The notes under the pieces: generated by a model
What the model saw: only the letters and a program-made list of their open reading frames with translations
Database searches by the model: none
Told to the model about the DNA's origin: nothing
In this document: positions 4,661 to 29,515 of the stretch, in pieces
Position numbering within the stretch: the first letter of the stretch is position 1
Layout of the letters: every line of letters starts with the position of its first letter
Position numbers and translations under genes: made by a program
Assembly (NCBI GenBank): GCA_021733985.1
Contig: JAIPJT010000008.1
Span: forward strand, 13,092-77,091
Direction: 5' to 3'
Length of the DNA stretch: 64,000 nucleotides
Source: Victivallales bacterium
GTDB taxonomy: Bacteria; Verrucomicrobiota; Lentisphaeria; Victivallales; GWF2-38-69

Positions 4661-4707
4661 CTCGTTAAACTTTATATATTAATAAGAAAAATAAATTGGA
4701 GTATTAA

Positions 4708-6021: not shown

Positions 6022-6039
6022 AGAAGAGGGAATATATTA

Positions 6040-10153
<4,114 letters not shown>

Positions 10154-10402: not shown

Positions 10403-10432
10403 TTATACCAAAAACGATTTAGTTTTCGAAAA
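10403..10432 (-). repeat. Truncated copy (3' box only) of the dispersed ~115-bp element family
   Basis: TATACCAAAAACGATTTAGTTTTCGAAAAG. ATACCAAAAACGATTTAGTTTT within it matches the reverse complement of copy A (ATACCCAAAACGAATTAGTTTT) at 20 of 22 positions. Similarity ends about 40 bp before the IS630-type remnant. Confidence 0.45.
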
Positions 10433-10473
10433 GTAGATTGAGATTTTCTTCAACCTGCTTAAATAAAGAACCT

Positions 10474-10993: not shown

Positions 10994-11069
10994 GGTGAAG
11001 GAGTTTTATTAATTTTTCAACTTTTTGTGCAAATTCTAAAAAATACTAATATAATTATAAGAAAATTAG

Positions 11070-14231: not shown

Positions 14232-14382
14232 GATTCTCATTATCAGAGGCTATATAAACTAACCAAAGAATCCTGAAACGCAAGTGCTGTAAATATATTT
14301 TTACTTTTTTTTTCAGGAAGTACTTCAAATACGTGGAAAATACAGTTTAAATGTCAAGTCCTGTTTTTATAAAAAATTTATA

Positions 14383-14453
14383 TACAAGTGTATGCAGTTT
14401 TATGGTTTTTGTTCCTTGTAACTAATTTCTAAAACTAATTCGTTTTGGGTATA
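14383..14453 (+). repeat. Dispersed element family, copy A (internally deleted, 71 bp)
   Basis: 5' box TATACAAGTGTATGCAGTTTTATGGTTTTTGTTCC and 3' box AAAACTAATTCGTTTTGGGTATA match copies B, C and D. The middle section is missing. Confidence 0.6.
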
Positions 14454-14458
14454 TATAC

Positions 14459-14509
14459 ACGCATTAACGATTGATTTTCGAAAAAGACAAAAAATCAATC
14501 GTAGTGCGT
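14459..14509. other. Long hairpin/inverted repeat just downstream of the ATP-grasp gene
   Basis: ACGATTGATTTT (14467-14478) and AAAATCAATCGT (14491-14502) are perfect complements around a 12-nt loop. The stem extends 7 more bp (ACGCATT/AGTGCGT, one G-T pair, one bulged A). No U-tract on either strand. Confidence 0.4.
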
Positions 14510-14522
14510 ATATTAATCGAGA

Positions 14523-15680
14523 TTACTTTGTTTTTTCAATAAAGGCAATAGCTTCTTTAAGATATTTTAGTTCAGGATGTCTTATAATGTAAATATAATC
14601 CCCCATAGCTGTGCTGAATACTTTAGGCATTTCCAGATGAAGAGCCATATGTTTACCATATTTATGCATTATTTCCTTGTGGTTGTGAACATAATTAAAT
14701 CTGTCTCTTCTGGCAACACATCCGACATTATATTTACGATTAAAAGTGATGTACTGTTCATCGTTTACCACCAGATCAGCCCAGTCCTTATATAGGTCAA
14801 TATCACACATATAATTCAGCATATCCATACAGTAACCGCCGGGAGGCCTGATATTAACTTCAAGAGCCTTATGGTTACCTTCGGGGGTTCTGAAGAATTC
14901 AAAATGGAAAAACCTTTCTTTTACATTAAAAGCCTTTACAAGCCTTTGTCCAAAATCCTCCAATTCGGGATTTAAATTTTTCTGATAAATGTAATGAACG
15001 GGGCCTCTATTGTTTACTACATCCATAATACTGTTACTAAGCTCCATCGATGAAGCGAACATTACTTCACCATGAATATTGGCAAGACCGTCATAGGTAA
15101 CAATTGTTCCTTCGACAAACTGCTCCAGTATAAGCCCTGAAGGCATATTAGCCAAGTTTTCGTTAAGCTGTTCATATGTTTTAACCTTACAGGTATGCTG
15201 TGCCCCTACCCCAATATCAGGTTTTATTATTAACGGGAAACCGTAGGTTTCAACAAACTTTTTTACCTTTGCATTTGAAGTTATTCTAATAGCCTTAGCA
15301 GCAGGGACATTTGCCTTTTCAAATTTCTTTTTCATTCCAAGTTTACTTCTGTTGAATGAAAGATCCTTTAACCGCTGGCCGAAAATATTAAAATCTTCCC
15401 TCAAACAGGCCTCCTGGTCAAGCCAGAATTCGTTATGAGATTCAACTCTGTCTATTTTCCCGTATTTGTGTGTAAAGTATCCCATTGCACGGACAAGAGA
15501 ATCATAGTCGGATAGAGATTCGACAAAATAGTATTCCGTTATAGATTTTTTCAATTCCGGTCTGAATTCATCGTACACCCCATCACCAATTGCTAAAACA
15601 TTCGCACCATTTTTTTTTAGATGAATACAAAAATTATAAAAATTGGGGGGGAACTGCGGGGATAAAAAAACAAAATTCAT
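14523..15680 (-). CDS. ATP-grasp domain protein (carboxylate-amine ligase-like), function unknown
   Basis: 385-aa ORF. Pre-ATP-grasp N-terminus MNFVFLSPQFPPNFYNFCIHLKKNGANVLAIGD and central ATP-grasp features (FPLIIKPDIGVGAQ, LILEQFVEG, EVNIRPPGG). Confidence 0.7.
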   Translation of the reverse strand: MNFVFLSPQFPPNFYNFCIHLKKNGANVLAIGDGVYDEFRPELKKSITEYYFVESLSDYDSLVRAMGYFTHKYGKIDRVESHNEFWLDQEACLREDFNIFGQRLKDLSFNRSKLGMKKKFEKANVPAAKAIRITSNAKVKKFVETYGFPLIIKPDIGVGAQHTCKVKTYEQLNENLANMPSGLILEQFVEGTIVTYDGLANIHGEVMFASSMELSNSIMDVVNNRGPVHYIYQKNLNPELEDFGQRLVKAFNVKERFFHFEFFRTPEGNHKALEVNIRPPGGYCMDMLNYMCDIDLYKDWADLVVNDEQYITFNRKYNVGCVARRDRFNYVHNHKEIMHKYGKHMALHLEMPKVFSTAMGDYIYIIRHPELKYLKEAIAFIEKTK

Positions 15681-15809
15681 ATGTTTTCCTTTTTTTAATT
15701 TTAGTATTTATATATAAACAATTGTTTTCTTTAATTTGTTATTTCCTATAAGTTTATGTTTATTGATATTAGAAAACAACCTTTAAATCACGAATGAACA
15801 CAATTTCTG

Positions 15810-16568
15810 CTATTTATCATTTTGCTTCAGCTCCTCATGAACCCATGACGGAAGTTCAGGACTTACTTTCACAGGTTTTTTTTCTTTTTTGAAAACGGGT
15901 ACTTTTTTTACAGTTTTCTTCTTTATTTTTTTATTCTCTTTATAGAACTTCTTTTCATCAGTTACTTCAGTTTCTTTTTGACTTTTTGTTTCAGCAGCCT
16001 TTGGGGGCTGTCTTTTTACTTTATGTTCTTTGCCTTTTTTCTCCTTCTTATGTTCTGCTTTTTTGATTTTTTCTTCTTCATGAAGAGTTATTGCGTGGTC
16101 TTCAACAATATTATCCTTTTCAACAGCTTTATTTTCCACTTTACCTGAGTTGGCAGGTTGCGGAGGAGTAATCAGCCTTTCAGGCAGTTTCATTTCTTTT
16201 TGGGGATGTCTTCTTTCAGTTTTCCCCGCCCTTCCGGCCGGGAGGTCATAAAACGCTTTCTTTAGTAAAAATGGAATACTTCCGAAAACGGCACCGAATC
16301 CTTTTGAAGTGCAGGCAATCATATAGTACCCTATTATATCGCACCAGGGACTGTTTGGGACTATAAGCCTTAACGGCTCAGTAGCTATTGCTGCGGGATA
16401 CCCCATTATAATACATCCGACAGCACTTCCTGCATAAGCCGGAACCTCGACAAAACTGCCTTCATGGCTGTAACCCTCGAATGCAGATTGTTTAATCGGA
16501 TTGTAGGCCGCTAAACTGTAGACAGAAAATAGAAATATAATAATAAGTATTTTTCTCATTAGATTCAC
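15810..16568 (-). CDS. Secreted or membrane-associated protein with a Lys/Glu-rich C-terminal tail
   Basis: 252-aa ORF. N-terminal signal-like MRKILIIIFLFSVYSLAA, a glycine/hydrophobic middle, and about 120 aa of KE-rich low-complexity tail (KKAEHKKEKKGKEHKVKR...KKIKKKTVKKVPVFKKEKKPVK). Confidence 0.5.
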   Translation of the reverse strand: MNLMRKILIIIFLFSVYSLAAYNPIKQSAFEGYSHEGSFVEVPAYAGSAVGCIIMGYPAAIATEPLRLIVPNSPWCDIIGYYMIACTSKGFGAVFGSIPFLLKKAFYDLPAGRAGKTERRHPQKEMKLPERLITPPQPANSGKVENKAVEKDNIVEDHAITLHEEEKIKKAEHKKEKKGKEHKVKRQPPKAAETKSQKETEVTDEKKFYKENKKIKKKTVKKVPVFKKEKKPVKVSPELPSWVHEELKQNDK

Positions 16569-16656
16569 TATGCCACCTTCAAAACTACTGGAATGCTGTA
16601 TAATTTTATTATTTTTTTACTGATTATAATCAATTATTCAAGGCTATTCAATATTA

Positions 16657-17421
16657 TCAATAAAATATTTTTCTGTTATCATCGGTACTGAAATACTCAT
16701 TATAAAGGATAGTCCCTCCCAAAACACCGCCGGGAATAAAAATTGCCGCCGCAAAAGGTATTAGAAGTACCGTATAGGCCGCCAGACCAAAGCCGAGAAT
16801 ATACAGTCTTCTACCTTTAATTACTTTTTTAAATTCTTTTCTTTTTAGCATCCTATGCTCGACACTGTAAATTAAAAAGGACATTCCAAGGAAATATGCT
16901 CCGGAAAGAGTACCGGGTAAATAACCGAAAACAGGTATGATAAAGTTTAGGGGAAACAAGACAGTAACCCAGAAAACAGTTAAAAAGTTCAGCCATATTC
17001 CGTTCCATACCGACATATAATACCCTCTAATTGCATGTTTAATACCTTTTCCCTGAATCTGGACAAATCCGTAAACTTCCTTTTCGACCTGAACCGACAA
17101 ACCGTCAAGATAAGGAGATGTTATAGCAAAAAAGACTGTATTGAACAAAAGCGCAGCTATCAGCAACACAGTAATAACTATTACAAAATTAAAAATCCAG
17201 ATCAGTGCAAAAAATATTGTCGAAAAATAAACATTGCCGCTATCCGGCAGAAAAGAATCCAGGTAAGGTAAAAAATATCGGAACAGAAAGAAAAAAATAA
17301 TTATGTAAAATATTATATTAAGAAAAAGTGAAACTTTAGCGTATTTCCAATACTGCTTATTCTGCAGCAGAATCTTTGTTCCTTTAAAGAATTTCAACAA
17401 CCCGGTAATTAACTGTTTCAT
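16657..17421 (-). CDS. Polytopic membrane protein, EI24/CysZ-like
   Basis: 254-aa ORF with several long hydrophobic segments. The N-terminal pattern (GLLKFFKGTKILLQNKQYWKYAKVSLFLNIIF...) resembles the EI24/CysZ family. Assignment is by recollection only. Confidence 0.4.
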   Translation of the reverse strand: MKQLITGLLKFFKGTKILLQNKQYWKYAKVSLFLNIIFYIIIFFFLFRYFLPYLDSFLPDSGNVYFSTIFFALIWIFNFVIVITVLLIAALLFNTVFFAITSPYLDGLSVQVEKEVYGFVQIQGKGIKHAIRGYYMSVWNGIWLNFLTVFWVTVLFPLNFIIPVFGYLPGTLSGAYFLGMSFLIYSVEHRMLKRKEFKKVIKGRRLYILGFGLAAYTVLLIPFAAAIFIPGGVLGGTILYNEYFSTDDNRKIFY

Positions 17422-17589
17422 CCTGTATTAGTTCTTCTGTTTAATGAATTTAAACGGTTTTGAGTTTAATTTTAAGCTTTACTTTAAGTAATTAACAACT
17501 TAACATAAATTCATCTATTTAATATATTGATTTTACAGGTAATTCAAATTATTCTTTATAATATATAAAACAGGACAACAAAATAAGCT

Positions 17590-18414
17590 ATGAATATCAG
17601 CCCTTATAACTCTATTGAAACTTTAAATGCAATAGAATCGAGACTGCGAAAAAATAAAAGAGTATTTTTTGTCCGTTTCGGTGACGGTGAAATTGTAAGC
17701 ATGATGGGTAAAGACCACAGAAACTACTCTTATAGCCCTCAGCTTCAGAAGGAACTAACTGAATCTTTTAAAATAAAAAATAAAAATTATCTAAAAGGTA
17801 TCGCAGTTAATATCCCATATGAAAAGGGAATGTCAAGAGGTGTATTTCTTTCACATGATCAAAACAGCAAACTGATAGACTTTCTGACAACGAATAAACT
17901 AATAACTATCAAAACAGATTTATACAGTGCTGTTTCCTTTTTATATATATCTGCTTTTAAACCGGAATTAGTCTATAATTTTTTTGAAAAATATATCAGG
18001 CCTGTTCCTGCTTTGTTCATAGGGAGTACTTCTCCTGGTATGGTAAAAAAATTGTATGGAGAAAATACTAAATATATCAAAATACCAAGTAAAAATTGTT
18101 ATAATTCTATTGACTCATGGTGGCCAAAAGTCATAGAAGAACTCAGGGGCGTTAAACTTATTTTACCATCTGCAGGCGCTGTCTCTAATGTAATAGCAAA
18201 AAGGCTATGGTATCTCGAAAAAGATATCAATGTTCTTGATATAGGCTCTCTTGTTGATGCACTGGAAAATAAAACAACGCGGACATGGATCCGTTTAGTT
18301 GGTCACCGTGTGCAGAAAATACTGCCGGCGGAACATAGGAACAACAGTTTTACTGATAAAATTAAATATTTTAAAAAAGATTTATATTATTTATTTCGTC
18401 AATTTAAAAGATAA
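17590..18414 (+). CDS. Putative GT-D-fold glycosyltransferase (DUF1792-like)
   Basis: 274-aa ORF. VFFVRFGDGE near the N-terminus matches the RFGDGE signature I associate with DUF1792/GT-D enzymes. Lies in a glycosyltransferase cluster. Confidence 0.45.
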   Translation: MNISPYNSIETLNAIESRLRKNKRVFFVRFGDGEIVSMMGKDHRNYSYSPQLQKELTESFKIKNKNYLKGIAVNIPYEKGMSRGVFLSHDQNSKLIDFLTTNKLITIKTDLYSAVSFLYISAFKPELVYNFFEKYIRPVPALFIGSTSPGMVKKLYGENTKYIKIPSKNCYNSIDSWWPKVIEELRGVKLILPSAGAVSNVIAKRLWYLEKDINVLDIGSLVDALENKTTRTWIRLVGHRVQKILPAEHRNNSFTDKIKYFKKDLYYLFRQFKR

Positions 18415-18545
18415 TTCTTGTATTTCCCGTACTATATGTTTAATTCAGTTTTATCAGCATTAAATTAAGACTTATTTCTTGTTTTAAAAATCTTCGAACA
18501 GCAGGGAAAGCTTTATCCGGTTGTTTAACGGGAACAAATTTAAAA

Positions 18546-18574
18546 TTCCAACTACCGGTTTCTACTGCTATAAT
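18546..18574 (+). promoter_or_regulatory. Candidate sigma70-type promoter for the glycosyltransferase operon
   Basis: TTCCAA (18546-18551), 17 nt, then TATAAT (18569-18574). About 70 bp upstream of the GT4 gene start. Confidence 0.3.
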
Positions 18575-18641
18575 GCTTGAAATTTATTTACTTTTTTTTT
18601 ATGATTAAATATGCCGTTTTCAATTTAATATCTTTATACTC

Positions 18642-19697
18642 ATGATAACTATGAAAATAAACTTATGCCACATAAATTTATCTAAAGATTTCCGCGGAGG
18701 TGAAATACAAACTATATTGCTTGCGGAAAAGCTTAAGGAGTATAATATAAAGCAGACTATAGTCGTCAGAAAAAAAAGCCTTTTTGAAAGAAAGGCAAAG
18801 TCTCTTAAGGGAATAAAAATTATAAGTTTGAGAAAGCCTTACTTTCTTAAATTCTGGAAACTTAGAAATTTTGACATAATCCACAACCACGAGGCAAAAG
18901 GAAAGTATATCTCATATTTGGCGAAAAGAGCTTTCAAGGTTCCATATGTAATAACCAGACGAGTGACTTTCCCTCCTACTAATACTAATTTTTCCAGAAA
19001 TGCTTTATTTAATGCTGACAGAATCACGGTTTTATCAAAAGCCATAAAACAAGCTTTAACTAAAGTTGACAATAGATTGAATATTGACATTATCCCTTCT
19101 GCAGTTTCATGTACTGAATCCAATCCTCAAAAAGTTAAAGCCCTCCGTGAAAAGTTCAAAAATAAATTTACAGTGGGAAATATTGGCGCTGTTGTTGATA
19201 ACTCAAAGGGGCATAAAAATATAGTTGAAGCAGCGGAATATTTTGAAAAACAAAACAAAGATATCCTTTTTATTGTTATTGGATACGGAAAAGATTATGA
19301 TTATTATAAAAATAAAGCTCGAAACTTAAGCAATATCATTTTTATTGGTTACACTGAAAACATCAGTAATTATATAAAAAACTTTGATGTTTTTATTTTT
19401 CCTTCACTTTCAGAAGGACTCGGTTCATCGATTATTGATGCTATGTATCACAACGTTCCGGTAATAGCATCCAATGTAGGAGGAATACCTGAATTGGTTA
19501 CAGATCATAAAACCGGGCTTTTAATCGAACCTGATAATACAAAAGAGCTGTGCGAAAAAATTTCTATACTATATAAGGACATTCAACTACGTTCAAAACT
19601 GATTGAAAATGCAAAAAAAAATTTATCTAATTATAATATCGATATTATAGCTGATAAATACAATAAATTATACCGGATAATTTTAGGAAAGAAATGA
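18642..19697 (+). CDS. Glycosyltransferase family 4 (GT-B fold)
   Basis: 351-aa ORF. C-terminal EX7E-type region FIFPSLSEGLGSSIIDAMYHNVPVIASNVGGIPELV. An alternative start at 18651 is possible. Confidence 0.8.
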   Translation: MITMKINLCHINLSKDFRGGEIQTILLAEKLKEYNIKQTIVVRKKSLFERKAKSLKGIKIISLRKPYFLKFWKLRNFDIIHNHEAKGKYISYLAKRAFKVPYVITRRVTFPPTNTNFSRNALFNADRITVLSKAIKQALTKVDNRLNIDIIPSAVSCTESNPQKVKALREKFKNKFTVGNIGAVVDNSKGHKNIVEAAEYFEKQNKDILFIVIGYGKDYDYYKNKARNLSNIIFIGYTENISNYIKNFDVFIFPSLSEGLGSSIIDAMYHNVPVIASNVGGIPELVTDHKTGLLIEPDNTKELCEKISILYKDIQLRSKLIENAKKNLSNYNIDIIADKYNKLYRIILGKK

Positions 19698-20602
19698 TTT
19701 CACAACTTACAATGCCAACAAAAAAAATCATAATCTGCCTTTTTTTTATAGTTATGATTGCAGCAGGACTGCGTACATGGTATGCATATGAAAAGAAAGT
19801 GTTTGCCCCGGACTCATATTTGTATTCTGCTATCGCTGAAGATATGTCAAAAGGAGGTATTGCCTATGCTTATTCTGTAAACTCTTCAGGCAGGCCGCCT
19901 CTTTTGCCTATAGTTGAGTCTTTTGGAAGTTACGTTAACCTATCACCAAGGATTACAGGAATACTGATCGGTGGAATTCTGGGAAGTTTAACCCCTTTAG
20001 CTGTATTTCTCATCGTAATAAATATTATGGATACAGCAAAAAACGAGCCGGCAGCAGTAAAAAGTAAACTTTCTAATAAACCAGAAGATAATAGCAGAGA
20101 ATTAGAAACAGACTCTTCTAATCTATTAACAACAAGTTCACTTGCGCTGTTGGGGGCATTCCTGGTTGCTATACACCCCAAATTAATAATAGTCAGTGTG
20201 ATAGGTATAAGAGAATGCTTATATATACCATTATTTATATTTTCAATTACAGTAGGAGTCATAGCTATAAGAAGACAATCCGTATGGCTGTGGGGAATTG
20301 TCGGAATTTTAGCTGTACTGGCAAATATGTCCAGACGTGAAGGATTAGAAATTATAATAATTTTTTTGATTTGGCTTGCTGCTGATATTATTATATTTTT
20401 TCTGAAATTCAGGAAAAAAAATTTTCCCGTTAAAAAGAATGTAACTTACTGGCTGAAATTATCTGCAGTATTTATGATAACATTCTGGGGTTTGATCATC
20501 CCTATTGAAAAATATTTACAATCGCAGAACTGCACATGGGGCATTTTCAAACAGGCCGTTAGGGGCAGTAATATGGTAGAAAAAATAACTGATAAAAAGT
20601 AA
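19694..20602 (+). CDS. Membrane protein resembling the N-terminal transmembrane half of a GT-C (ArnT/PMT-like) glycosyltransferase
   Basis: 302-aa ORF whose start overlaps the upstream stop (ATGA). LRTWYAYEKKVFAPDSYLYSAIAEDMSKGG...GRPPLLPI resembles the first periplasmic loop of ArnT/PMT_2 proteins. Multiple TM segments and an inserted low-complexity loop. Confidence 0.4.
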   Translation: MISQLTMPTKKIIICLFFIVMIAAGLRTWYAYEKKVFAPDSYLYSAIAEDMSKGGIAYAYSVNSSGRPPLLPIVESFGSYVNLSPRITGILIGGILGSLTPLAVFLIVINIMDTAKNEPAAVKSKLSNKPEDNSRELETDSSNLLTTSSLALLGAFLVAIHPKLIIVSVIGIRECLYIPLFIFSITVGVIAIRRQSVWLWGIVGILAVLANMSRREGLEIIIIFLIWLAADIIIFFLKFRKKNFPVKKNVTYWLKLSAVFMITFWGLIIPIEKYLQSQNCTWGIFKQAVRGSNMVEKITDKK

Positions 20603-20631
20603 TAAAACTGACAGTTGGGGCATTACATAAA

Positions 20632-21423
20632 ATGGATATAATTGAAATTATACTACATACTTTTTTTGAAAAATGTCTATGGAAAGCAGTTTTCCCGACT
20701 TCACTTGTTCTCCTTGTATTTGCATTTTTTAATTTAAAAGCATTTAAGAAAAACCGCCGCGAATTTATTTTTATTTTAGTTGGGCTGATTGTCCTTTTAG
20801 CTATCCGTTTAATCTGGTCTGTAGGATATACTATAAAACGTGATTACGAATTCTATTCACCGATAAGAAGATTTTATGATTTTGCTATATTGTCAATACC
20901 TGTAGCAGTCGCCGGATTTCCAGTTTTGATTAATTTTTCAAAAAGAATTCTTCTTATTTTTATAAGCGATAAAAAAGTAAAGACTGTTCATATTATAATA
21001 TTCTGGATAATCATTTGTTCAGCTTTATGTATATCCCAGACAGTCCCTGGAGGTTTGTCTACACAGTATTTAAGTTTATACAACTTAAAAGAAACTATAA
21101 AAAATGACTTGCCTTCTAACAAAAAATCCCTTTTTATTTACGGTTTTGCAAAAGCCAAGGGCAGTCAATATTACCGGATGCAATATTTTGCTGATGCTGA
21201 CAAAAGTGTAAACATGAAGAGTATCTTAAACATAAAGAAGCCCGAATATTTCTACGAAGGCCTTAGTAAATTAGGAAAAATGGGGTATCAGCCCTATATT
21301 TTCGAAGACAATAGAGAAAATAAATTTAAAAAAATATTTACAGATAGAAATCTGAGATTCAAATTTAAATTATTAAAAGAGTGGGGAAATGGCAAATACA
21401 GTTTATTAAAGTATATTGAATAA
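20632..21423 (+). CDS. Membrane protein with a soluble C-terminal domain (possibly the second half of a split GT-C enzyme)
   Basis: 263-aa ORF with about 4-5 N-terminal hydrophobic segments followed by a hydrophilic C-terminus of about 110 aa. No motif recognised. Confidence 0.35.
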   Translation: MDIIEIILHTFFEKCLWKAVFPTSLVLLVFAFFNLKAFKKNRREFIFILVGLIVLLAIRLIWSVGYTIKRDYEFYSPIRRFYDFAILSIPVAVAGFPVLINFSKRILLIFISDKKVKTVHIIIFWIIICSALCISQTVPGGLSTQYLSLYNLKETIKNDLPSNKKSLFIYGFAKAKGSQYYRMQYFADADKSVNMKSILNIKKPEYFYEGLSKLGKMGYQPYIFEDNRENKFKKIFTDRNLRFKFKLLKEWGNGKYSLLKYIE

Positions 21424-21544
21424 GTTTTAACATAGTTAAACTGTTTTGGAAAACAATAGTTTTATTCAGTCAATTTTATAACTGCTCTATAACATAACAG
21501 CAGCAAATTTTACAAATAAAAATGAACACATTAAACATAGATTT

Positions 21545-22318
21545 GTGAATGATATGAGTCTTTCAGTAGGAATTATTACATTTAATGAGGAAAAAATAAT
21601 CAGCAGTACATTAGCGGCTGTTAAAGAAATTGCAGATGAAGTAATTATAGTTGACAGCCACAGCACAGATAATACTGTAAGTATAGCTAAACAGTTCGGA
21701 GCTGAAGTCTATGAAGAAGACTGGAAGGGATTCGGACCACAGAAAAACTCTGCCCTGGATAAGTGCAAAGGTGACTGGATACTTTTTTTAGATGCAGATG
21801 AAATCGTATCCCCTGAACTGCTTGAAAACATAAAAAAAATCATTAACGGTAACTGTAGTTTTTCAGTTTATAAAATTAGTATGGAACCTGTCTGCTTCGG
21901 TAAACATATTAAGCACTGCTGGGGAAACGACAGCCACATAAGATTATGGAAAAAAGGTACTGTACGTTATAACAACCGCTTTGTCCATGAAAAAATGCTG
22001 ACAGATAAGAAAGTCGGCCGAATCAGAGAAAAAATATATCACTACACTTATCCCACCTTGCATGATTATTTTGAAAAACTTAATAAATATACAATACTCA
22101 GTGCTGAAGAATACTATGAAAAAGGAAAAACTGCCGGCGGGATAAAAATTATTTTAAGGCCCTTTTATACTTTTTTTAAAATGTATATTTTGAGAAGAGG
22201 TTTCCTTGACGGACTGGAAGGTTTTGTAATTTGTTTTTTAAATGCAGTCTATGTTATGGCAAAATATTTCAAGCTCAGAGAAATATATAAAAATAACACT
22301 TATAAAGAAAAACTATAA
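21545..22318 (+). CDS. Glycosyltransferase family 2 (WaaE/KdtX-like)
   Basis: 257-aa ORF (GTG at 21545, alternative ATG at 21554). LSVGIITFNEE...VIIVDSHSTDNT...ILFLDADE (DxD) is the canonical GT2 N-terminal domain. Confidence 0.8.
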   Translation: MNDMSLSVGIITFNEEKIISSTLAAVKEIADEVIIVDSHSTDNTVSIAKQFGAEVYEEDWKGFGPQKNSALDKCKGDWILFLDADEIVSPELLENIKKIINGNCSFSVYKISMEPVCFGKHIKHCWGNDSHIRLWKKGTVRYNNRFVHEKMLTDKKVGRIREKIYHYTYPTLHDYFEKLNKYTILSAEEYYEKGKTAGGIKIILRPFYTFFKMYILRRGFLDGLEGFVICFLNAVYVMAKYFKLREIYKNNTYKEKL

Positions 22319-22324
22319 CCTTTT

Positions 22325-23188
22325 ATGGGCAAAAACATCCCCGTCAGCTACATTATATCTTTCTATAATAATATAAATGCTTTAGAGCTGATTTTAAGCG
22401 CTCTTAAAAGGCAGACTTATAAGAACTTTGAAGTTATTATTGCAGACGACGGTTCACGAAAAGAAATTGTAGACCGGATAAAAAAACTGCACTCTCACTA
22501 TAGCTTTCCTATAAAGCATGTCTGGCATAATGATTTAGGCTGGAGAAAAACTAAAATATTGAATAAAGCCGTTACCGTTTCGGGAGGAAATTATTTGATC
22601 TTTACCGACGGTGACTGCATCCCGCATAAATGCTTTATAAAAAATCACTGGGAACAAAGAGAAAATGATAAAGTTTTAACTGGCAGAAGAGCTTTCCTTA
22701 CTAAATTCATTTCAAAGAAGCTGACTCAAAAAAATGTAGAAAAAGGTATCCTGGAAAAAAGCTTCTTAATAATATCACTGGTTATGGGTTTATTCAGGAA
22801 AGGTAAACATATCAGTAAAGGCATATACATTAAAAACCATTACTTTAGGAAATTACTAAGTAAAAAAAATAAAGAAATATTAGGAAGTAATTTCTCAATT
22901 CATAAAGAAAGTCTTCTAAAAATTAATGGTTTTGATGAACGTTATTTAGCTCCGGGCACCGGTGAAGATACAGATATTTTTGTGAGAATAAAAAATGCAG
23001 GTTTACAGGTCAAATATCTAAACCACTCTGCTATACTATATCATATTTATCATAAAATTCCTAAATCCTATGAAACCTCTGCAAACAGAAAAATTTTAGA
23101 AGAACATAAAACAAACAACACCACTTATACTATATATGGAATAAATAAAGAAACAGTTACAACTGAAAACTCTTTATATTCTGAATAA
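22325..23188 (+). CDS. Glycosyltransferase family 2
   Basis: 287-aa ORF. VSYIISFYNN...EVIIADDGS...LIFTDGDCIP (DxD) and GSNFSIHKESLLKINGFDERY...GEDTDI. Confidence 0.75.
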   Translation: MGKNIPVSYIISFYNNINALELILSALKRQTYKNFEVIIADDGSRKEIVDRIKKLHSHYSFPIKHVWHNDLGWRKTKILNKAVTVSGGNYLIFTDGDCIPHKCFIKNHWEQRENDKVLTGRRAFLTKFISKKLTQKNVEKGILEKSFLIISLVMGLFRKGKHISKGIYIKNHYFRKLLSKKNKEILGSNFSIHKESLLKINGFDERYLAPGTGEDTDIFVRIKNAGLQVKYLNHSAILYHIYHKIPKSYETSANRKILEEHKTNNTTYTIYGINKETVTTENSLYSE

Positions 23189-23253
23189 AAACAAAATCAT
23201 GTAATCGCCCATGATGGAAATATATCGAAATTCTTAATCTTTCCTGTTATTTA

Positions 23254-23368
23254 ATACCCCAAACGATTTATTTTTATTTATCCACGTTGAATAACCGTAG
23301 TGAGAAATGCTGTCCGATTTTGGGCTGGGCACCGTTAAAAAATCTCTAAAAACCGCATACACTTGTGT
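23254..23368 (-). repeat. Dispersed element family, copy D (inverted orientation, divergent middle)
   Basis: The reverse complement reads ACACAAGTGTATGCGGTTTTT ... TTCAACGTGGATAAATAAAAATAAATCGTTTGGGGTAT. It has the same end boxes and the same 115-bp core length as copy B. Confidence 0.55.
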
Positions 23369-23437
23369 AAATTATTTTCAACTTCCTTACAGCTAAAAAT
23401 TAAAAATAATTCATTTATTTAAAAAATATCTATTGAT

Positions 23438-23487
23438 AAATTCAAACATTTGTTTTAAACTTTAAATTAAAACAACTGTTTGAATTT
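23438..23487. promoter_or_regulatory. 50-bp near-perfect palindrome overlapping a candidate promoter; likely TetR operator
   Basis: Arms 23438-23458 and 23467-23487 are complementary at 20 of 21 positions (AAATTCAAACATTTGTTTTAA / TTAAAACAACTGTTTGAATTT). TTGATA (23433-23438), 17 nt, then TAAACT (23456-23461) overlaps it. The palindrome ends 33 bp before the tetR ATG. Confidence 0.45.
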
Positions 23488-23519
23488 TATTTATTAACTT
23501 AACACTTAAGCAATCAGCC

Positions 23520-24146
23520 ATGAATACTAAAGAAAAAATTTTATTAACAGCAGCAGAAGAGTTTGCTAAAAACGGTTATCACCGCACTACAATTCGAGAA
23601 ATATGCGAATCAGCCAAAGTCAACATTTCTGCAATAAATTATCATTTTAACAGCAAAGAAAATTTATATAAGACTGTTGTGGATTATTTATTTGAAAAAG
23701 TGCTTAATGACAGCATAGAATTTAATTTTACTAACTTAAAGGAATGGAAGACTGAATTCAAAAAGCTGATCCTTGATTATCTTGAAAAGGTAATGGGCAA
23801 ATCCTTATACGGTTCATTCCTGAACAGAATTCTTTTCCGTGAAATGATAGATCCATCAATAATTTTCTATACAATTCACAAAGAATACATCCAAAAACAC
23901 TTTTCAAGGCTAAAAAAATTTATCAATTATATATCGGTACAGGCAGACAGTGAAGAAAATTTAAATTTACTGGTTTATACCTTAGCCTCTCAGTATATTT
24001 TTTACGGGCAGAATAAATATTTAGTTTCTTTAGAGCTTGGAGACGAATATTTGAACAGTCATGAAAATCTGGATTACCTCGCAGGTTTTATTACAGAAAA
24101 CTGTTATTCAATATTGAGAAGTAGAAAAAAGATAAATCTTCTGTAG
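23520..24146 (+). CDS. TetR/AcrR-family transcriptional regulator
   Basis: 208-aa ORF. N-terminal HTH KEKILLTAAEEFAKNGYHRTTIREICESAKVNISAINYHFNSKENLY. Confidence 0.85.
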   Translation: MNTKEKILLTAAEEFAKNGYHRTTIREICESAKVNISAINYHFNSKENLYKTVVDYLFEKVLNDSIEFNFTNLKEWKTEFKKLILDYLEKVMGKSLYGSFLNRILFREMIDPSIIFYTIHKEYIQKHFSRLKKFINYISVQADSEENLNLLVYTLASQYIFYGQNKYLVSLELGDEYLNSHENLDYLAGFITENCYSILRSRKKINLL

Positions 24147-24200
24147 AAGATTAACGGATATAACGTGAACCTAAATTAAAAAAGAGAAAAAATTATTATC

Positions 24201-25397
24201 ATGAATAGAATGACAAATAAAATACAGATTTTATTATGTTTTATACTCTTACAGCTTATCACCTCCTGCAATGAAAGTCCTGAATTTCAACCTCAGGCAG
24301 TGAGGGTTGAAACATCACATCCCCAATATATGACATTCAGGAATACTCTCAGGATACAGGGGAATGTAGAAGCTGAAAATTATGCTAATATCTGCGCCAG
24401 AGTAGACGGAAACTTAGATATAATGAAAGTGGACAAAGGAGATAAAGTTAAAAAAGGACAAACCCTATTTCAGGTCGATAAGGAAAACCTTGAGCACGAA
24501 GTAAAAGTCAGTATTAATAATTGTAATGTGGAGAAAATGATTCTTGAAAAAGCAAAACTCGATTATCAGATACAGAAAATCAAAACTGAAAGTGCCAGGG
24601 AAGATTATCTGCGTGCAAAGACACTGGTCAAAAAGCATGCGGTATCTGAAAGTTATTATGAAGATATGCTGCATGACTACAGTAGTTCAAAGTCCCGTTT
24701 AAAACTTGCAAAAACTAATGTTAAACATTCAGAGATCAGTTTGGAAAGAGCAGAAAATAATTTAAGAATTGCTCAAAAAAAACTTGCTGATTCCAAAATC
24801 ACGGCGTCATATCCAGGTGTGATAACTAAAACCTTTCATGAAACCGACGAATATGTAAAAAAGGGTGATTGTGTAGTAAGACTGGAAGAACTTGATAGGC
24901 TGAATGTAACTGCCTACATTAATTCAGAATATTACTCTCAGATCAGAAAAAACAAAACAGAAGCCAATATATATTCGCTTAACGGCAAAAAGATCGTCAA
25001 AACTTATATAACCTATAAGTCACCTAATATAGACACAACTACAAGAAATTTTGAGATTGAACTCATTTTACCAGAACAAAAAAAACTTGTTTCAGGTATG
25101 CTTTGCAATATTGAAGTAATTCTTTCCGAAAAAAAAGCTTATGGCGTTCCGGAAGATGCTGTAATCATGAGAAGCGGAGGCAAAACCTCAATTTTTATTG
25201 CTAAAAAAAGCAAAGCCGTAGAAAAAAATGTAAGAACCGGCCTGATTTACAGAGGTTATATCGAACTAACAGGCAAAATTAAGCCTAATATAAATGTTAT
25301 TACAAAAGGGCAGGCTTTCCTTAATGACGGCACAAGAATTAAAGTAATGAACAAACAGAATAACAAACACGAAAAAACAGATAATGTTTCTAAGTAA
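24201..25397 (+). CDS. RND efflux periplasmic adaptor (membrane fusion protein)
   Basis: 398-aa ORF with a lipoprotein-like signal (LLQLITSC). Lipoyl-like halves (VKVDKGDKVKKGQTLFQVD; ITASYPGVITK) flank a coiled-coil hairpin. Overlaps the start of the downstream RND pump. Confidence 0.8.
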   Translation: MNRMTNKIQILLCFILLQLITSCNESPEFQPQAVRVETSHPQYMTFRNTLRIQGNVEAENYANICARVDGNLDIMKVDKGDKVKKGQTLFQVDKENLEHEVKVSINNCNVEKMILEKAKLDYQIQKIKTESAREDYLRAKTLVKKHAVSESYYEDMLHDYSSSKSRLKLAKTNVKHSEISLERAENNLRIAQKKLADSKITASYPGVITKTFHETDEYVKKGDCVVRLEELDRLNVTAYINSEYYSQIRKNKTEANIYSLNGKKIVKTYITYKSPNIDTTTRNFEIELILPEQKKLVSGMLCNIEVILSEKKAYGVPEDAVIMRSGGKTSIFIAKKSKAVEKNVRTGLIYRGYIELTGKIKPNINVITKGQAFLNDGTRIKVMNKQNNKHEKTDNVSK

Positions 25398-28300
25398 TTT
25401 TTCAATTAAACGCCCGGTTGCTATGACAGCAATAATAATTGTCCTTATCCTCTCGGGAATTAATTCCTATAGAAAAATAGGTTTGGACAATATGCCCGAA
25501 ATAGATATCCCGTATGTAACAATTAAGACCTTTTACCCCGGAGCTAATCCTGAGGAAATAGAGATCGATGTAGCAAAACCTATTGAAGATGCAGTGTCAA
25601 ATATTGACGGACTTAAGCACATGAACTCCATTTGCATGGATGGAGCATGTATTACAACCCTTGAATTTAATCTCGGCGTGAATAAAGATGTGGCAGCAGT
25701 AGATGTCAGAGAAAATATTGACCTGATAATTGATGACTTCCCGGAGGGAGTTGAGTCTCCGAGGATTTTAAAATTCGATGTTAACGCACAGCCTATAATA
25801 ACTTTGCTTTTAACGGGTGATAAACCACTTGATAGACTATATGATTATGCTGATGAAAAATTGTCCGACCGACTGTCAGTAATAAGAGGTGTAGCTAATG
25901 TCGAGATATCAGGCGGAGATGAACTCGAACTTCATATAACTTTAAATAAAAACAAACTTACTTCTATTGGACTCAATACTGCAAATATTGTTAACGAATT
26001 AGCCTTGAACAACATTAAAATACCTTCCGGAACCATTAAAACAGATTCGCGGGAATTATCTGTTACATTTGACGGAGAATTCAATAACATAGATGAAATA
26101 AAAAATTTTGAAATTGCGCAGACAGATAACGGAACCGTATACCTTCGTGATATTGCAAATATCTCAATGTGCTCCAAAGAAAAACGTACTGCAGCTTATT
26201 ATAACGGCAAACCGGCAGTCAACCTTAAGATCATAAAAAAAGGCGAAGCCAATGCGGTAAGGGTTACAGAACGAGTAAAAAAAGTGATTCGGGAAATTAG
26301 AAACAAGAATCTGCTGCCGAGCGGAATGCAACTTGTCTGGTTTACCGATAATGCAGATTTCATCCAGGCAAGTGTAGATGATGCCTGGGGCAGCGTTATT
26401 TTGGGAATTCTGCTTACAGCTCTGATTCTCTTTATATTTTTACATGAAGTTAGGTCAACTTTTATAGTAGTTCTTACGATGCCTGCGTCAATCATCGTTA
26501 CTTTTGCCATTATTTACTTTTTCGGCTATACATTTAACAACTCCACTCTTCTTGCACTGGGAACTTCAGTTGGAATTCTTGTGACAAATTCTATTGTTGT
26601 AATAGAGAATATAATAAAAAAACTTCACTCAGGGAGCACATCTGAGACAGCTTCAGCAGACGGGACCGGAGAAGTAGCGCTTCCGGTTTTTGCTAGCGCC
26701 ACAACAAATGTCGTTGTTTTTGTACCAATTGCCTTAATGTCTTCTTTAGTGGGAAGATACTTTATCCCTTTTGCTGTTACTATGACAGCCGCTACCTTGG
26801 TATCTCTTTTTATCAGTTTTACGATGACACCTATCCTGGCTTCCTATTTCCTTAAGAGTAAAATGCCAGATCATAAATTTCTTATGAAAAGCTACACTAA
26901 ATACTGGAACATTTATTATACTAAGTTCGAGAACTGTTACAGTTCAAGCCTCATGAAATTAAGTAAATATCCCTGGATAACTGTTTCAGCCGTTTTTTTA
27001 GTTCTGATTTTGACTCTTGCATTCCTCGCCCCTAAAGTCGGAATGTCATTTTTCCCGGATAATGACAGAGGAGAATTTATAGTCAAGATTGAATATCCTT
27101 CATATTATAATATTGATTCTAATATCTCAAGAACACTCAAATTTGATGAACGCATCAGAAAGCTTCCTGAAGTAATATCAACATCAACGGTAATGGGTAA
27201 AATACAAGGAGTATTGGGAAAAGTTTCAGAGGGGGTGCATCTCGCAGAAATAACTGTAAAAACTACAGATAAAATTTCCAGAGACAAAGACATGGAACAG
27301 ATTAAATCAATGCTCAGGAACGAATTTAAAAATGAAACAGACTGCATAATCAATGTCGGAGTTCCCACTGTAGTGGGAGGGTCAAGCTCCGATATAGAAT
27401 TTGAAATACTCGGCCCCGACTTAGCAGTTCTGGAAGACTTAGGGCGCAAAATAACGGCTGAAGCAGAAAACAGTCCAAAGTTAATAGATGTAGATAATAA
27501 TATAAGATCAGAAAAACCACAAATCAAAGTTAGGCCTAAACGAAGAATTATTAAAGATATGGGACTTAACTCACAGCTGATCGGAAAAGTGCTTAGAGGT
27601 AATATAGAAGGTATGGAAGTAGGAAATTATAAAATAGGAGACCGTTCATTTGATATAAGAGTAGAACTAAAAGAGGAAAAAGGCCTTAGTCAGCTTAAAG
27701 AGTTTACATTATTGTCTAAAAATGGAAAGCCTTTAGGGCTGGAAACAGTAGCAAACTTTAAAGATGACAGTATCCCTCTTCAAATTTCAAGAGACTCAAA
27801 AACCAGAATAGTCAAAATATTTGCAGATCCGGCTTCCGGTATCGCTATGGGAGATGCAATGAATTTTATTAAGAAAAAAACTGCAAAAATTTTGCCGGCC
27901 GGTTATTATATGAAATTTACCGGCAAGGCGGAAAAAATGGGAGAAGCTCAGCTGGATTTTCTCGAGGCAATAATAACAGCCGCTGTACTGACTTATCTTT
28001 TGATTTCTGCAGTTCTGGAATCCTGGGCACAGCCTTTAATTATTTTATTAACCCTTCCACTTGCACTGATAGGACTATTCACAGCATTGTATATTGCCGG
28101 CATCCCCCTATCAATGATGGGGCTTCTCGGGGTTGTAATGCTTATAGGAATCGTTGTAAATAATGCAATTCTGATTATGGATAATGTTATTGCTCTTCGA
28201 AAAGAGGGGATAGAACCGAAAGAAGCTATGCTGATATCCGCAAAAGAAAAATTAAGACCGATAGTTATGACAAGTATCGCCGCTATGCTGGGTATTGCCC

Positions 28301-28482
28301 CAATGGCTTTTTCAAGCGGTCTCGGTTCAGAACTCCGCTCAAGCTGCGGTATAGCTGTAATAGGCGGACTGATATCTTCAACAGTTCTTTCTCTTTATAT
28401 TATACCCTTAATTTATATTCAATTTTCTAAATTTGGAAAGAGTAAAACCAAGAACCCTATAAAGGAGAAACTTCAAAATTAA
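25384..28482 (+). CDS. RND-family efflux transporter, inner-membrane permease (AcrB-like)
   Basis: 1032-aa ORF. N-terminus FSIKRPVAMTAIIIVLILSGINSY and 12-TM/two-loop architecture with typical motifs (LGILLTALILFIFL, GLLGVVMLIGIVVNNAILIMD). No outer-membrane factor gene is adjacent. Confidence 0.9.
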   Translation: MFLSNFSIKRPVAMTAIIIVLILSGINSYRKIGLDNMPEIDIPYVTIKTFYPGANPEEIEIDVAKPIEDAVSNIDGLKHMNSICMDGACITTLEFNLGVNKDVAAVDVRENIDLIIDDFPEGVESPRILKFDVNAQPIITLLLTGDKPLDRLYDYADEKLSDRLSVIRGVANVEISGGDELELHITLNKNKLTSIGLNTANIVNELALNNIKIPSGTIKTDSRELSVTFDGEFNNIDEIKNFEIAQTDNGTVYLRDIANISMCSKEKRTAAYYNGKPAVNLKIIKKGEANAVRVTERVKKVIREIRNKNLLPSGMQLVWFTDNADFIQASVDDAWGSVILGILLTALILFIFLHEVRSTFIVVLTMPASIIVTFAIIYFFGYTFNNSTLLALGTSVGILVTNSIVVIENIIKKLHSGSTSETASADGTGEVALPVFASATTNVVVFVPIALMSSLVGRYFIPFAVTMTAATLVSLFISFTMTPILASYFLKSKMPDHKFLMKSYTKYWNIYYTKFENCYSSSLMKLSKYPWITVSAVFLVLILTLAFLAPKVGMSFFPDNDRGEFIVKIEYPSYYNIDSNISRTLKFDERIRKLPEVISTSTVMGKIQGVLGKVSEGVHLAEITVKTTDKISRDKDMEQIKSMLRNEFKNETDCIINVGVPTVVGGSSSDIEFEILGPDLAVLEDLGRKITAEAENSPKLIDVDNNIRSEKPQIKVRPKRRIIKDMGLNSQLIGKVLRGNIEGMEVGNYKIGDRSFDIRVELKEEKGLSQLKEFTLLSKNGKPLGLETVANFKDDSIPLQISRDSKTRIVKIFADPASGIAMGDAMNFIKKKTAKILPAGYYMKFTGKAEKMGEAQLDFLEAIITAAVLTYLLISAVLESWAQPLIILLTLPLALIGLFTALYIAGIPLSMMGLLGVVMLIGIVVNNAILIMDNVIALRKEGIEPKEAMLISAKEKLRPIVMTSIAAMLGIAPMAFSSGLGSELRSSCGIAVIGGLISSTVLSLYIIPLIYIQFSKFGKSKTKNPIKEKLQN

Positions 28483-28620
28483 TCTCCGTTTAACTGCCGG
28501 CAGTGCTAAAAGAACCCCCAAGAATACTACTAAACTATTTAAGATTTGTATTATTTATAAAAAAAAGAAAAATTAAAACAGGAAACACCTTTTCATAAAC
28601 CGAAAAATTATATAGAATAT

Positions 28621-28735
28621 ACACAAGTGTATGCGGTTTTTTGGTTTTTGTCCTTCGTAAACGAACCTGGACATACATTTTATTTTCAACCATATCATTT
28701 GATACGGATAAATAAACCAAAACGTTTTAGGTATA
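28621..28735 (+). repeat. Dispersed element family, copy B (full length, 115-bp core; conserved flank starts at 28601)
   Basis: ACACAAGTGTATGCGGTTTTTTGGTTTTTGTCCTTCGTAAACGAACCTGGACATACATTTT...GGATAAATAAACCAAAACGTTTTAGGTATA. By manual alignment it shows about a dozen differences from copy C over about 120 nt. Confidence 0.7.
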
Positions 28736-28840
28736 CTATATATTAAACTATTTGTAAATTTTAAATACACATTGGGGATTTAAAACACTTTGAGAATATT
28801 TAAAGTTAATCAAAATTTTAGATAAAAAAAGGAACAGTAA

Positions 28841-29257
28841 ATGATCGATAAAAATAACAAAAGAGAGGATACTGACACTTTTAGAAAGCAACCTACTCCT
28901 AAATATCAGAAAACTATATTTAAGATCTGTATTATAATCATTACGGTAGCAACAGTTATACTATGCTATTTTCTAATCGCAGTTTTTGTTAATATACAAG
29001 AAAAAATCACAGACATGGATTCACACCTGGTTGAAGTCGATAAACGACTTCAAAAAACAAACACTTCCATAATTAGTTTAAAAAGGTCACTGCAAAATAC
29101 AAATAAAGAACTGAGACAAACAAATGAACGTCTTTCCAGCTTGCACATAGATTTCGACCATAAACTCGAAGATTTCCCCGTTAAATTTAAAAAACTCCAT
29201 AAAAACCTGGAAAAAACAGCAAGAAAGCTGGATGAAAGCTGGCTGCTTTCATTGTAG
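28841..29257 (+). CDS. Small single-pass membrane protein with an extracytoplasmic or cytoplasmic coiled coil
   Basis: 138-aa ORF with AGGAA RBS. One hydrophobic segment (IFKICIIIITVATVILCYFLIAVFV) followed by heptad-like, K/L/N-rich sequence. No recognisable family. Confidence 0.5.
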   Translation: MIDKNNKREDTDTFRKQPTPKYQKTIFKICIIIITVATVILCYFLIAVFVNIQEKITDMDSHLVEVDKRLQKTNTSIISLKRSLQNTNKELRQTNERLSSLHIDFDHKLEDFPVKFKKLHKNLEKTARKLDESWLLSL

Positions 29258-29299
29258 TAAACAAGTCAATCCTATAAAAGCAGTCGAAAAATCAAATAT

Positions 29300-29415
29300 A
29301 CACAAGTGTATGCGATTTTATGGTTTTTTTCCTTCGTAAATGAACTTGGACATACACTTTATTTTTCAACCATATCATTTGATACGGATAAATAAACCAA
29401 TTCGTTTTGGATATA
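29300..29415 (+). repeat. Dispersed element family, copy C (full length, 116-bp core; conserved flank starts at 29285)
   Basis: ACACAAGTGTATGCGATTTTATGGTTTTTTTCCTTCGTAAATGAACTTGGACATACACTTT...GGATAAATAAACCAATTCGTTTTGGATATA. It is a direct repeat of copy B, 679 bp downstream. Confidence 0.7.
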
Positions 29416-29515
29416 ATTACGCGTATATATGAATTTCCTGTTGTTTACAATGTAATAATCTGGAAATTTTATTAGTAAAATATTAGACAGTATCATTGAT
29501 TTATAAACCTAAATA

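Follow-up and report, generated by a model that had tools for sequence, protein, structure and literature searches.

The window, as we call the whole 64-kb stretch of DNA that was analysed, comes from an uncultured Victivallales lineage. It contains four copies of a non-coding repeat (71–115 bp) and one 59-bp mini-element within 19 kb, together with the remnant of an insertion sequence (IS) of the IS630 family (Table 1); copies and mini-element were counted across these 64 kb only. All copies are intergenic and occur in either orientation, copy C being located between convergent genes. Read directly, their coding content is limited to an ORF of 7–9 codons that has no ribosome-binding site.

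Table 1. Coordinates of the putative miniature transposons (MITEs) and of the IS remnant in the window
Feature	Coordinates	Strand	Remarks
Degraded IS630-family IS	10404–11059	+	Left terminal repeat 10404–10433; transposase pseudogene about 10468–11010
Probable degenerate right end of the IS remnant	11032–11059		AATTCTAAAAAATACTAATATAATTATA
Putative MITE copy A, short variant	14379–14453	+	71 bp between TA flanks (14381–14451); nhmmer E = 1.8e-10
Palindromic mini-element A'	14454–14512	.	59 bp, adjoins copy A; TATACACGCATTAACGATTGATTTTCGAAAAAGACAAAAAATCAATCGTAGTGCGTATA
Putative MITE copy D	23253–23371	-	115 bp between TT flanks (23255–23369); nhmmer E = 1.7e-29
Putative MITE copy B	28618–28735	+	114 bp between TA flanks (28620–28733); nhmmer E = 8e-32
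Putative MITE copy C	29297–29415	+	115 bp between TA flanks (29299–29413); nhmmer E = 1.1e-31

Copies and boundaries of the repeat

The 5' box ACACAAGTGTATGCGGTTTT was matched four times in the window when up to three mismatches were allowed, as compared with 0.01 matches expected by chance. For the 3' box, six matches were found against 1.38 expected, and five of these are the sites named in the initial annotation. Copies A, B, C and D were confirmed at the places given in that annotation. A sixth copy, suspected at position 35827, was not confirmed: the similarity is a 15/16 match to the interior of A, such a further match being expected 0.13 times by chance, and the nhmmer profile did not pick it up. 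Copy A had been described as a B- or C-like copy with an internal deletion. Its location was recovered, while a simple deletion does not account for it, since its 3' 28 nt follow the IS terminal repeat further inwards than those of B, C or D.

B and C are identical at 109 of 120 positions (about 91%) and, judged by this identity, are probably the youngest pair. The copies in general are probably old and mostly inactive. D shares with B 23 of the 24 positions of the 5' box and 11 of the 12 positions of GGATAAATAAA; the middle of D, remarked on as largely different, is unrelated to that of B (23/62 positions identical). The equal core length of B, C and D was likewise confirmed: measured from one flanking dinucleotide to the other, it is 114, 115 and 115 bp. 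Outside TATAC...GGTATA the sequence differs between copies (p 0.21–0.83, with one low-complexity A-run as the exception), and the element boundaries are therefore sharp.

Each element starts as TA-TAC(A)C... and finishes as ...GGTA-TA, where the hyphen marks the boundary, and its 3' end is a terminal inverted repeat of the IS630 type. In the 5' box, the tip is followed by a strongly conserved 14-bp palindrome, ATACAC-AA-GTGTAT (a perfect 6-2-6 arrangement), and then by GCGGTTTT. The two ends of one element have the five contiguous bases TATAC in common. Over the first 10 nt, the 5' end mirrors the 3' repeat at 7/10 positions in A, B and C and at 5/10 in D, and only the TATAC tip is common to the IS ends.

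On inspection of the ends for target-site duplications, a matching dinucleotide was found on both sides of every element: TA/TA for A, B, C and A', and TT/TT for D. These 2-bp flanks fit the TA duplication typical of IS630/Tc1, although TA may instead be part of a conserved terminus. The TT/TT of D is the sole independent case, and it is weak evidence in A+T-rich DNA.

The IS630-family remnant and the 3' ends

A further site, E (10404–10432), had been listed as a copy reduced to its 3' box. In fact it is a terminal inverted repeat, forming the left end of a decayed IS630-family IS whose transposase pseudogene carries frameshifts and stops. Domains of a DDE transposase were recognized in the remnant (Pfam DDE_3, 1.5e-7; HTH_33, 7.8e-5). 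The repaired transposase fragment scored 50 bits (2.1e-13) against the NCBIfam IS630 model NF033545, below the cut-off of 100 bits, since about 40% of the protein is all that remains. By blastx, amino acids 1–34 and 117–263 of transposases of ~352 amino acids were covered, with 69–71% and 82–91% identity to the proteins P0126/P0127. By blastn against the intact ISs in L061/L062, nucleotides 1–172 of the remnant correspond to IS positions 1–173 (87–88%) and nucleotides 162–604 to positions 420–876 (79–80%). These alignment blocks imply a 246-bp internal deletion as well as 3' deletions. Deletions relative to the 1,157-bp ISs thus explain the remnant's size of 656 bp, the left end being intact and the right end degenerate. 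The remnant holds the only transposase gene visible in the window; no other transposase or recombinase gene was found there.

Intact IS relatives were taken from other metagenomes (L060, L061, L062 and L066–L069). The intact ISs are about 1,157–1,176 bp long, are bounded by TA and encode one DDE transposase of ~352 amino acids. With 196 and 206 bits, their transposases exceed the NCBIfam IS630 equivalog cut-off of 100, and tblastn matches in plasmid records bear the annotation "IS630 family transposase". The ends of the intact ISs read TATACC(W)AAA(M)CGA(W)TTAGTTTT(M)GAAAA...GGTATA, and they were fixed independently because one and the same IS was available in three insertion contexts.

An nhmmer profile and a position-specific scoring matrix (PSSM) were built solely from these external IS ends, which makes the comparison with the window non-circular, and 127,946 positions on both strands were scored. 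In both cases, the top five sites in the window were E, at the end of the remnant, and the 3' termini of copies A, C, B and D. All five are in register, beginning at profile position 1–2, which is the element terminus. The 3' end of A ranked first by PSSM (score 36.0), followed by C at rank 3, B at rank 4 and D at rank 5; in the nhmmer search it came second to E only (E = 1.4e-5). Of its terminal nucleotides, 28 of 30 are shared with the IS left end in L060, 25 of 28 with E and, counted by eye from the printed sequences, 26 of 28 with the P0124-type left IS end (IRL). On this sequence comparison, the 3' ends of the putative MITEs are homologous to IS630-family terminal repeats, whereas homology could not be demonstrated for the 5' ends.

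Both arms of the mini-element A' also score against the external IS-end profile, with PSSM ranks of 6 and 15 of 127,946. Its inner block AACGATTGATTTTCGAAAA resembles the IRL, and TA is found at both of its ends. The presence of A', with IS-like inverted arms, beside A shows that at least two deletion derivatives of such an IS exist here.

Interpretation of the repeat and rival readings

The ~115-bp intergenic repeat is quite probably a small family of non-coding MITEs related to an IS630-type IS. The initial annotation had preferred a mobile, MITE-like element to a UTR motif, and this preference is supported by the IS630-type 3' terminal repeat, the degraded IS630 element co-resident in the window and the matching 2-bp flanks, all of which, like the repetition and the sharp ends, were observed directly. 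With 71–115 bp, several dispersed copies and no coding content, the elements also agree with the usual picture of a bacterial MITE (below ~300 bp). We infer that the elements are mobilised in trans. An IS630-family DDE transposase supplied in trans would bind the element ends and excise the element, which would then re-insert at a TA dinucleotide that is duplicated upon insertion. The decayed, internally deleted IS copy would exemplify the deletion process by which MITEs are generated. The other label that had been offered, "REP-like", does not suit the repeat, which is not a short palindromic unit and has no RAYT-type gene nearby. REP/BIME sequences are imperfect palindromes of 20–40 nt, often clustered, with a RAYT (Y1 transposase) as their partner. 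Here, the unit measures 114–115 bp, with asymmetric ends and no strong hairpin, and no Y1 transposase was present among the window ORFs scanned.

The 5' end bears on two further readings. Beyond the fixed TATAC tip, the 5' box had no significant similarity to any of eight IS ends in anchored alignments (p 0.08–0.9), and its PSSM rank against the external IS ends was only 214–801 of 127,946 (top 0.2–0.6%). On these grounds, the box could not be shown to be a diverged IS end. Neither an IS with a 5'-box-type end nor an intact transposase was found, which also speaks against the preferred reading as MITEs. No part of the element is better conserved than this box (23/24 between B and D, as against 23/62 in their middles), and across copies its conservation (20–23 of 24) exceeds that of the IS-derived 3' box (13–16 of 17–19), which a simple model with transposase sites at both ends does not predict. 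Together with the perfect palindrome and the total length kept at 114–115 bp though the middle is unrelated, these observations favour a one-ended element, in which only the 3' end derives from IS630, the 5' palindrome box stems from an unseen mobile element or a host protein-binding site, and spread or upkeep is achieved other than by two-ended IS630 transposition. However, in all copies the 5' tip TATAC(A/C)CAA is a mirror of the 3' tip, and the flanks match, as two-ended cut-and-paste predicts. Moreover, short imperfect terminal repeats of 4–9 contiguous bp are normal in bacterial MITEs, for which lengths of 4–24 bp are listed (PMC2229807, Table 1). The window, in addition, holds no second transposase or recombinase gene. 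We consider such an origin unlikely. The repeat might also be a heterologous-end or "hybrid" MITE, with an IS630-type repeat at one end, an unrelated and more conserved palindrome module at the other, and its length held constant despite the unrelated middle; this we regard as rather improbable. If true, it would mean constraint beyond ordinary transposase recognition, possibly exerted by a host factor or second protein on the palindrome or by a fixed-length nucleoprotein architecture for mobilisation. The conserved palindromic 5' box is the only feature perhaps worth further work.

It is highly unlikely that the unit is a host repeat which serves as a preferred IS630-type target, its 3' boxes being solo IS ends left by insertion beside the repeat and subsequent deletion. 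ISs are known to lie in clusters with RUP-type elements (PMC2229807), the IS remnant shows that large internal deletions occur, and A and A' adjoin. Nevertheless, four independent insertions would be required, each with a deletion to the same junction, as B, C and D share the point at which GGATAAATAAA meets the terminal repeat. The same overall length (114–115 bp) would be needed each time, and the matching dinucleotides span the whole unit rather than the IS end alone. We assign an equally small probability to an RNA element recurring in several intergenic regions, either a structured small RNA, which had been kept as a fallback, or a cis-regulatory motif. In B and C, the 5' sequence AAGTGTATG can pair with CATACAYTT, and there is an inner hairpin; the share of paired cells is 80.7%, as compared with 74.1% in shuffles, and the observed share was reached in only 5/500 shuffles. 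For the minus strand of B, the fold has a z-score of -2.45. However, B and C, from which the structure was drawn, have 91% identity, and although the pairings hold in this near-identical pair, about half of the long helix is disrupted in D and all of it is missing in A. The RNAalifold consensus amounts to -1.95 kcal/mol with only 10 trivial pairs, and single-sequence z-scores on the forward strand lie between -1.2 and -1.8 in A, B and C, with +1.5 in D. Rfam gave no match for the elements at gathering thresholds in the whole window, where it returned only four tRNAs, or at E≤10 in 28550–29480, where only sub-threshold eukaryotic snoRNA/miRNA noise was seen. The elements have no constant orientation towards the genes beside them, and the consensus scan placed neither promoter- nor terminator-like sites inside them.

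Several other candidates were rejected. A promoter was dismissed along with a terminator: the 3' tip has a TATAAT-like hexamer, for which no -35 hexamer at a workable spacing was found by hand. A leader peptide from the ATG of the 5' box (MRFFGFCPS, MRFYGFFPS, MQFYGFCSL and MRFLEIF, each followed by a stop) has no ribosome-binding site, it is no better conserved than the nucleotide sequence, and the genes downstream of the copies are not related to one another. By eye, no GTTRRRY/RYYYAAC cores or arms spaced by 6–8 bp were visible that would mark an integron attC or Xer/pdif-type site. A DnaA-box look-alike in D, CGTGGATAA, was judged coincidental. D(-) and B(+) bracket a tetR-MFP-RND operon with their IS-type ends outward, but a composite transposon was discarded, since the outer flanks differ (AA vs TA) and each element's own flanks match.

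Known systems and distribution

For the preferred reading as IS630-related MITEs, the closest precedent is RUP of S. pneumoniae with its proposed partner IS630-Spn1. RUP is a non-coding intergenic repeat of about 107 bp (a 107-bp repeat in PMC2229807) with short terminal inverted repeats, TA termini and a TA target. Its terminal repeats are similar to those of IS630-Spn1, and this likeness to a co-resident IS630-family IS has been taken as a sign of mobilisation in trans (PMC2229807). The Victivallales element parallels it with 114–115 bp, TA flanks, an IS630-type 3' end and an IS630 remnant 4 kb away. Similarity in sequence is not expected, and the host phylum differs (here Lentisphaerota, order Victivallales). 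In contrast to RUP, only one end matches the IS convincingly, there are four copies and one mini-element in 64 kb as against 108 copies per genome, and no intact partner transposase was seen, only the degraded copy within the window. By profile score, the remnant and the intact ISs encoding P0126/P0127 are members of the IS630 family (NF033545; IS630/Tc1/mariner superfamily), to whose terminal repeats the 3' ends of the putative MITEs are homologous. Unlike these ISs, the 71–115-bp elements encode nothing and lack the entire transposase gene, and their 5' end departs from either IS end past the first 5–7 nt. The Correia/NEMIS elements of Neisseria are dispersed in intergenic regions, have TA termini and come in two sizes, ~107 and ~155 bp, distinguished by an internal segment (PMC2229807), much as short (A) and long (B/C/D) copies occur here. 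Correia elements, in contrast, have terminal repeats as long as 24 bp and an IHF site, and effects involving promoters and RNase III have been documented for them.

Further copies were sought by profile in about 4 kb past the window (L057–L059) and in the related loci L056, L061 and L063, and none was found. The exact 5' box gave 49 single matches in 185,579 species-representative genomes, none with a 3' box, as compared with ~70 estimated by chance. It gave three matches in JGI metagenomes, at one unrelated locus, and none in viral contigs; blastn against plasmids gave no match. The search of the boxes in other genomes that had been suggested thus yielded only chance-level or unrelated 5'-box matches outside this Victivallales species, where no copies were found. 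No polymorphism of filled and empty sites was seen: same-species contigs (GCA_021734965.1, SRR12088346, SRR12088347) are 100% identical through the elements, and all contigs with identical flanking proteins have the same sequence and hence no empty site. Relatives with 67% AcrB identity (L056, L063) are without the element and also without synteny. Nothing was found in the literature on the MAG and run accessions.

The repeat is an ordinary kind of bacterial repeat, neither a new RNA nor a new regulatory system, and read as above it is a previously unnamed MITE family with its IS630-type relative in an uncultured Victivallales lineage. The main use of its definition is in annotation, and a candidate novel structured RNA is removed from consideration. 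The window also serves as a small illustration of the decay of IS630 to MITE-like derivatives, comprising an IS that has cleanly lost 246 bp from its interior, a two-arm mini-element of 59 bp and elements of 71–115 bp. Finally, the repeats explain the breaks that short-read assemblies show at these intergenic sites. The same-species contigs L051/L052 begin inside D, at window position 23269, and L051 stops inside B, at position 28712, as expected of repeats.

Repeat family with two conserved ends

The sequence belongs to an uncultured Victivallales bacterium (Lentisphaerota), and it is also present, identical, in MAG GCA_021734965.1 and in the Logan assemblies of SRR12088346/7. It carries a lineage-restricted family of probable IS630-related MITEs; a decayed IS and a mini-element share the window with them. 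The positions that the initial annotation had given for the four main copies of the ~115-bp repeat (A, B, C and D) were borne out. Every copy is intergenic, and orientation relative to the neighbouring genes varies.

In the window, the 20-nt 5' box, the conserved start of the element, had four matches at ≤3 mismatches compared with 0.01 expected from dinucleotide shuffles; the 3' box had six compared with 1.38 expected, and five of these six are named sites. With a profile HMM of the copies, E-values were ~1e-30 for B, C and D and 2e-10 for A. B and C are identical at 109/120 positions. B and D agree closely in the 5' box (23/24) and in GGATAAATAAA (11/12); their middles are essentially unrelated (23/62 identical), and both are nonetheless 114–115 bp long. 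The likeness among copies ends abruptly at TATAC...GGTATA, with no significant likeness between the flanks of different copies. A sixth copy had been proposed at 35827, but the profile HMM missed this site. Here TTATGGTTTTTGTTAC matches the interior of A at 15/16, where ~0.13 such extra matches are expected by chance; after it comes TACCGAAACGAAT, with a weak likeness to the left end of an IS. Chance could account for this borderline match; otherwise the site is a heavily decayed fragment.

Positions of the repeat copies, related elements and neighbouring features (window coordinates unless a contig is named)
Feature	Position	Strand	Setting
A	14379-14453	+	between tRNA-Met and ATP-grasp gene
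B	28618-28735	+	between RND pump gene and 138-aa ORF
C	29297-29415	+	between 138-aa ORF and convergent 1,931-aa PAS-GGDEF-EAL gene
D	23253-23371	-	between glycosyltransferase gene and tetR
A' (mini-element)	14454-14512		
IS remnant	10404-11059		
E (outer end of IS remnant)	10404-10433		
ATTACGCGTATATA	29416-29429		
TTATGGTTTTTGTTAC and TACCGAAACGAAT	35826-35852		
Efflux operon with D and B	23253-28735		
Operator-like TTGAYAAATTCAAACAWWTGYTTTAAA	23433-23460; L056 ~8160-8200; L063 ~8130-8170		
Same-species contigs L051/L052	23269-28712		
Same-species contig L050	28579-33988		
Aconitase–isocitrate dehydrogenase cluster	2747-10153		
Helicase-like protein	11274-14099		
Y1 transposase and reverse transcriptase	L061 6998-7771 and 12731-13876		

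Degraded IS630 copy and its intact relatives

E, previously regarded as a partial copy with a 3' box only, reached only 0.7 with the profile HMM of the copies. It instead forms the outer terminus of a decayed insertion sequence, whose broken transposase frame lies directly inside E and matches Pfam DDE_3 and HTH_33 and the NCBIfam 'IS630 family transposase'. By blastx, the remnant frame corresponds to residues 1–34 and 117–263 of ~352-aa transposases. When the remnant was aligned to intact ISs of 1,157 bp found in other metagenomes, its nt 1–172 and 162–604 matched IS positions 1–173 and 420–876, respectively, with 79–88% identity. This split alignment indicates an IS630-family element that lost 246 bp from its interior in one clean deletion (IS positions 174–419), with further deletions on the 3' side; frameshifts and stops are also present. 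The right border is probably the degenerate right repeat near 11059. The remnant appears to be an intermediate between an IS and a MITE-like relic.

Intact relatives were retrieved as L060, L061, L062 and L066–L069. Their transposases exceed the IS630 equivalog cut-off, and the plasmid-record matches obtained with them by tblastn carry the annotation IS630 family transposase. One intact IS was found in three different contexts, which sets the IS boundaries at TATACC...GGTATA. The ends of the intact relatives read TATACC(W)AAA(M)CGA(W)TTAGTTTT(M)GAAAA, and the 3' box of the elements, when reverse-complemented, is the same sequence. The 3' end of A matches the left end of the L060 IS at 28/30, E at 25/28 and the P0124-type left end at 26/28 (counted by eye). 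On L061, a Y1 (IS200/IS605-type) transposase and a reverse transcriptase lie near the intact IS630 copy; this neighbourhood is a mobile-element-rich region.

A non-circular test used an nhmmer profile and a PSSM made from external IS ends only, with which the 127,946 positions of the window were scanned. The five best sites were E and the 3' ends of A, C, B and D, all in register with the element terminus. Ranks 6 and 15 fell on the two arms of A', a 59-bp palindromic mini-element that had so far gone unnoticed and directly adjoins MITE A. Its inverted arms are ~22 nt long and TATAC-tipped, TA stands at each end, and its inner block resembles an IS630-type left end. Directly 3' of MITE C, ATTACGCGTATATA resembles both A' tips fused, a weak likeness (7/11 to the A' start); excision may have left it as a footprint, or it may be a remnant.

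Mobilisation, RNA structure and the 5' box

The elements are likely to be MITEs that a transposase moves or once moved. IS630/Tc1-mariner elements insert at TA, which is duplicated. When the elements are read as TAC...GTA, the matching flanks are TA/TA for A, B, C and the mini-element and TT/TT for D; since a TA duplication and a conserved terminus are indistinguishable without an empty site, the flanks are supportive rather than decisive. Within the elements, contigs of the same species show no differences, and thus no empty site was found among them. The closest precedent for these elements is RUP/IS630-Spn1 (RUP is summarised in PMC2229807).

A structured RNA is an unlikely alternative, and nothing in the four sequences favours it. 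Rfam returned no match, the forward-strand folds were unexceptional (z = -1.2 to -1.8; +1.5 for D), and the RNAalifold consensus reached -1.95 kcal/mol. In B and C, which are nearly identical, the helices proposed in the initial annotation are intact; they are half broken in D and missing in A.

The weak point of the MITE reading, and its main residual uncertainty, is the 5' box. Its TATAC tip is common to the IS ends, seven of its first ten nucleotides match the element's own 3' end, and it falls within the top 0.2–0.6% of window positions by the IS-end PSSM. Beyond the fixed tip it has no significant likeness to any of eight IS ends (p 0.08–0.9), and it is more conserved than the IS-derived 3' box. 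The box may descend, with divergence, from one end of the true parent IS, may come from the end of a different element, or may be a site for a host protein.

Distribution and genomic setting

Across 185,579 species-representative genomes, the exact 5' box was not found beyond 49 single matches (~70 estimated by chance), none of which has a 3' box. It was not found in JGI metagenomes, viral contigs or plasmids, nor was the element found in relatives with 67% AcrB identity. Short-read contigs from this species (L050, L051 and L052) start or end inside or beside D and B, so the elements act as assembly breakpoints. The break in B is due to a 38-nt run common to B and C, and that in D may point to other D-like copies, or to a variant, elsewhere.

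The tetR-MFP-RND efflux operon lies between D and B, whose IS-type ends point outward as in a composite bounded by MITEs; on the outside, the flanks of the pair differ (AA vs TA). The operon has different surroundings in the two relatives examined (L056 and L063). Directly upstream of tetR, the operator-like sequence TTGAYAAATTCAAACAWWTGYTTTAAA is conserved in three genomes and is probably the TetR binding site and promoter. MITE D lies upstream of this sequence and is distinct from it, and the two relatives that have the sequence are without the element. Elsewhere in this Victivallales MAG, aconitase, two ATP-citrate lyase subunits and monomeric isocitrate dehydrogenase are clustered (a reductive-TCA-type gene set). 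Directly downstream of the IS remnant lies a 941-aa UvrD/superfamily-1 helicase-like protein with C-terminal ankyrin repeats.
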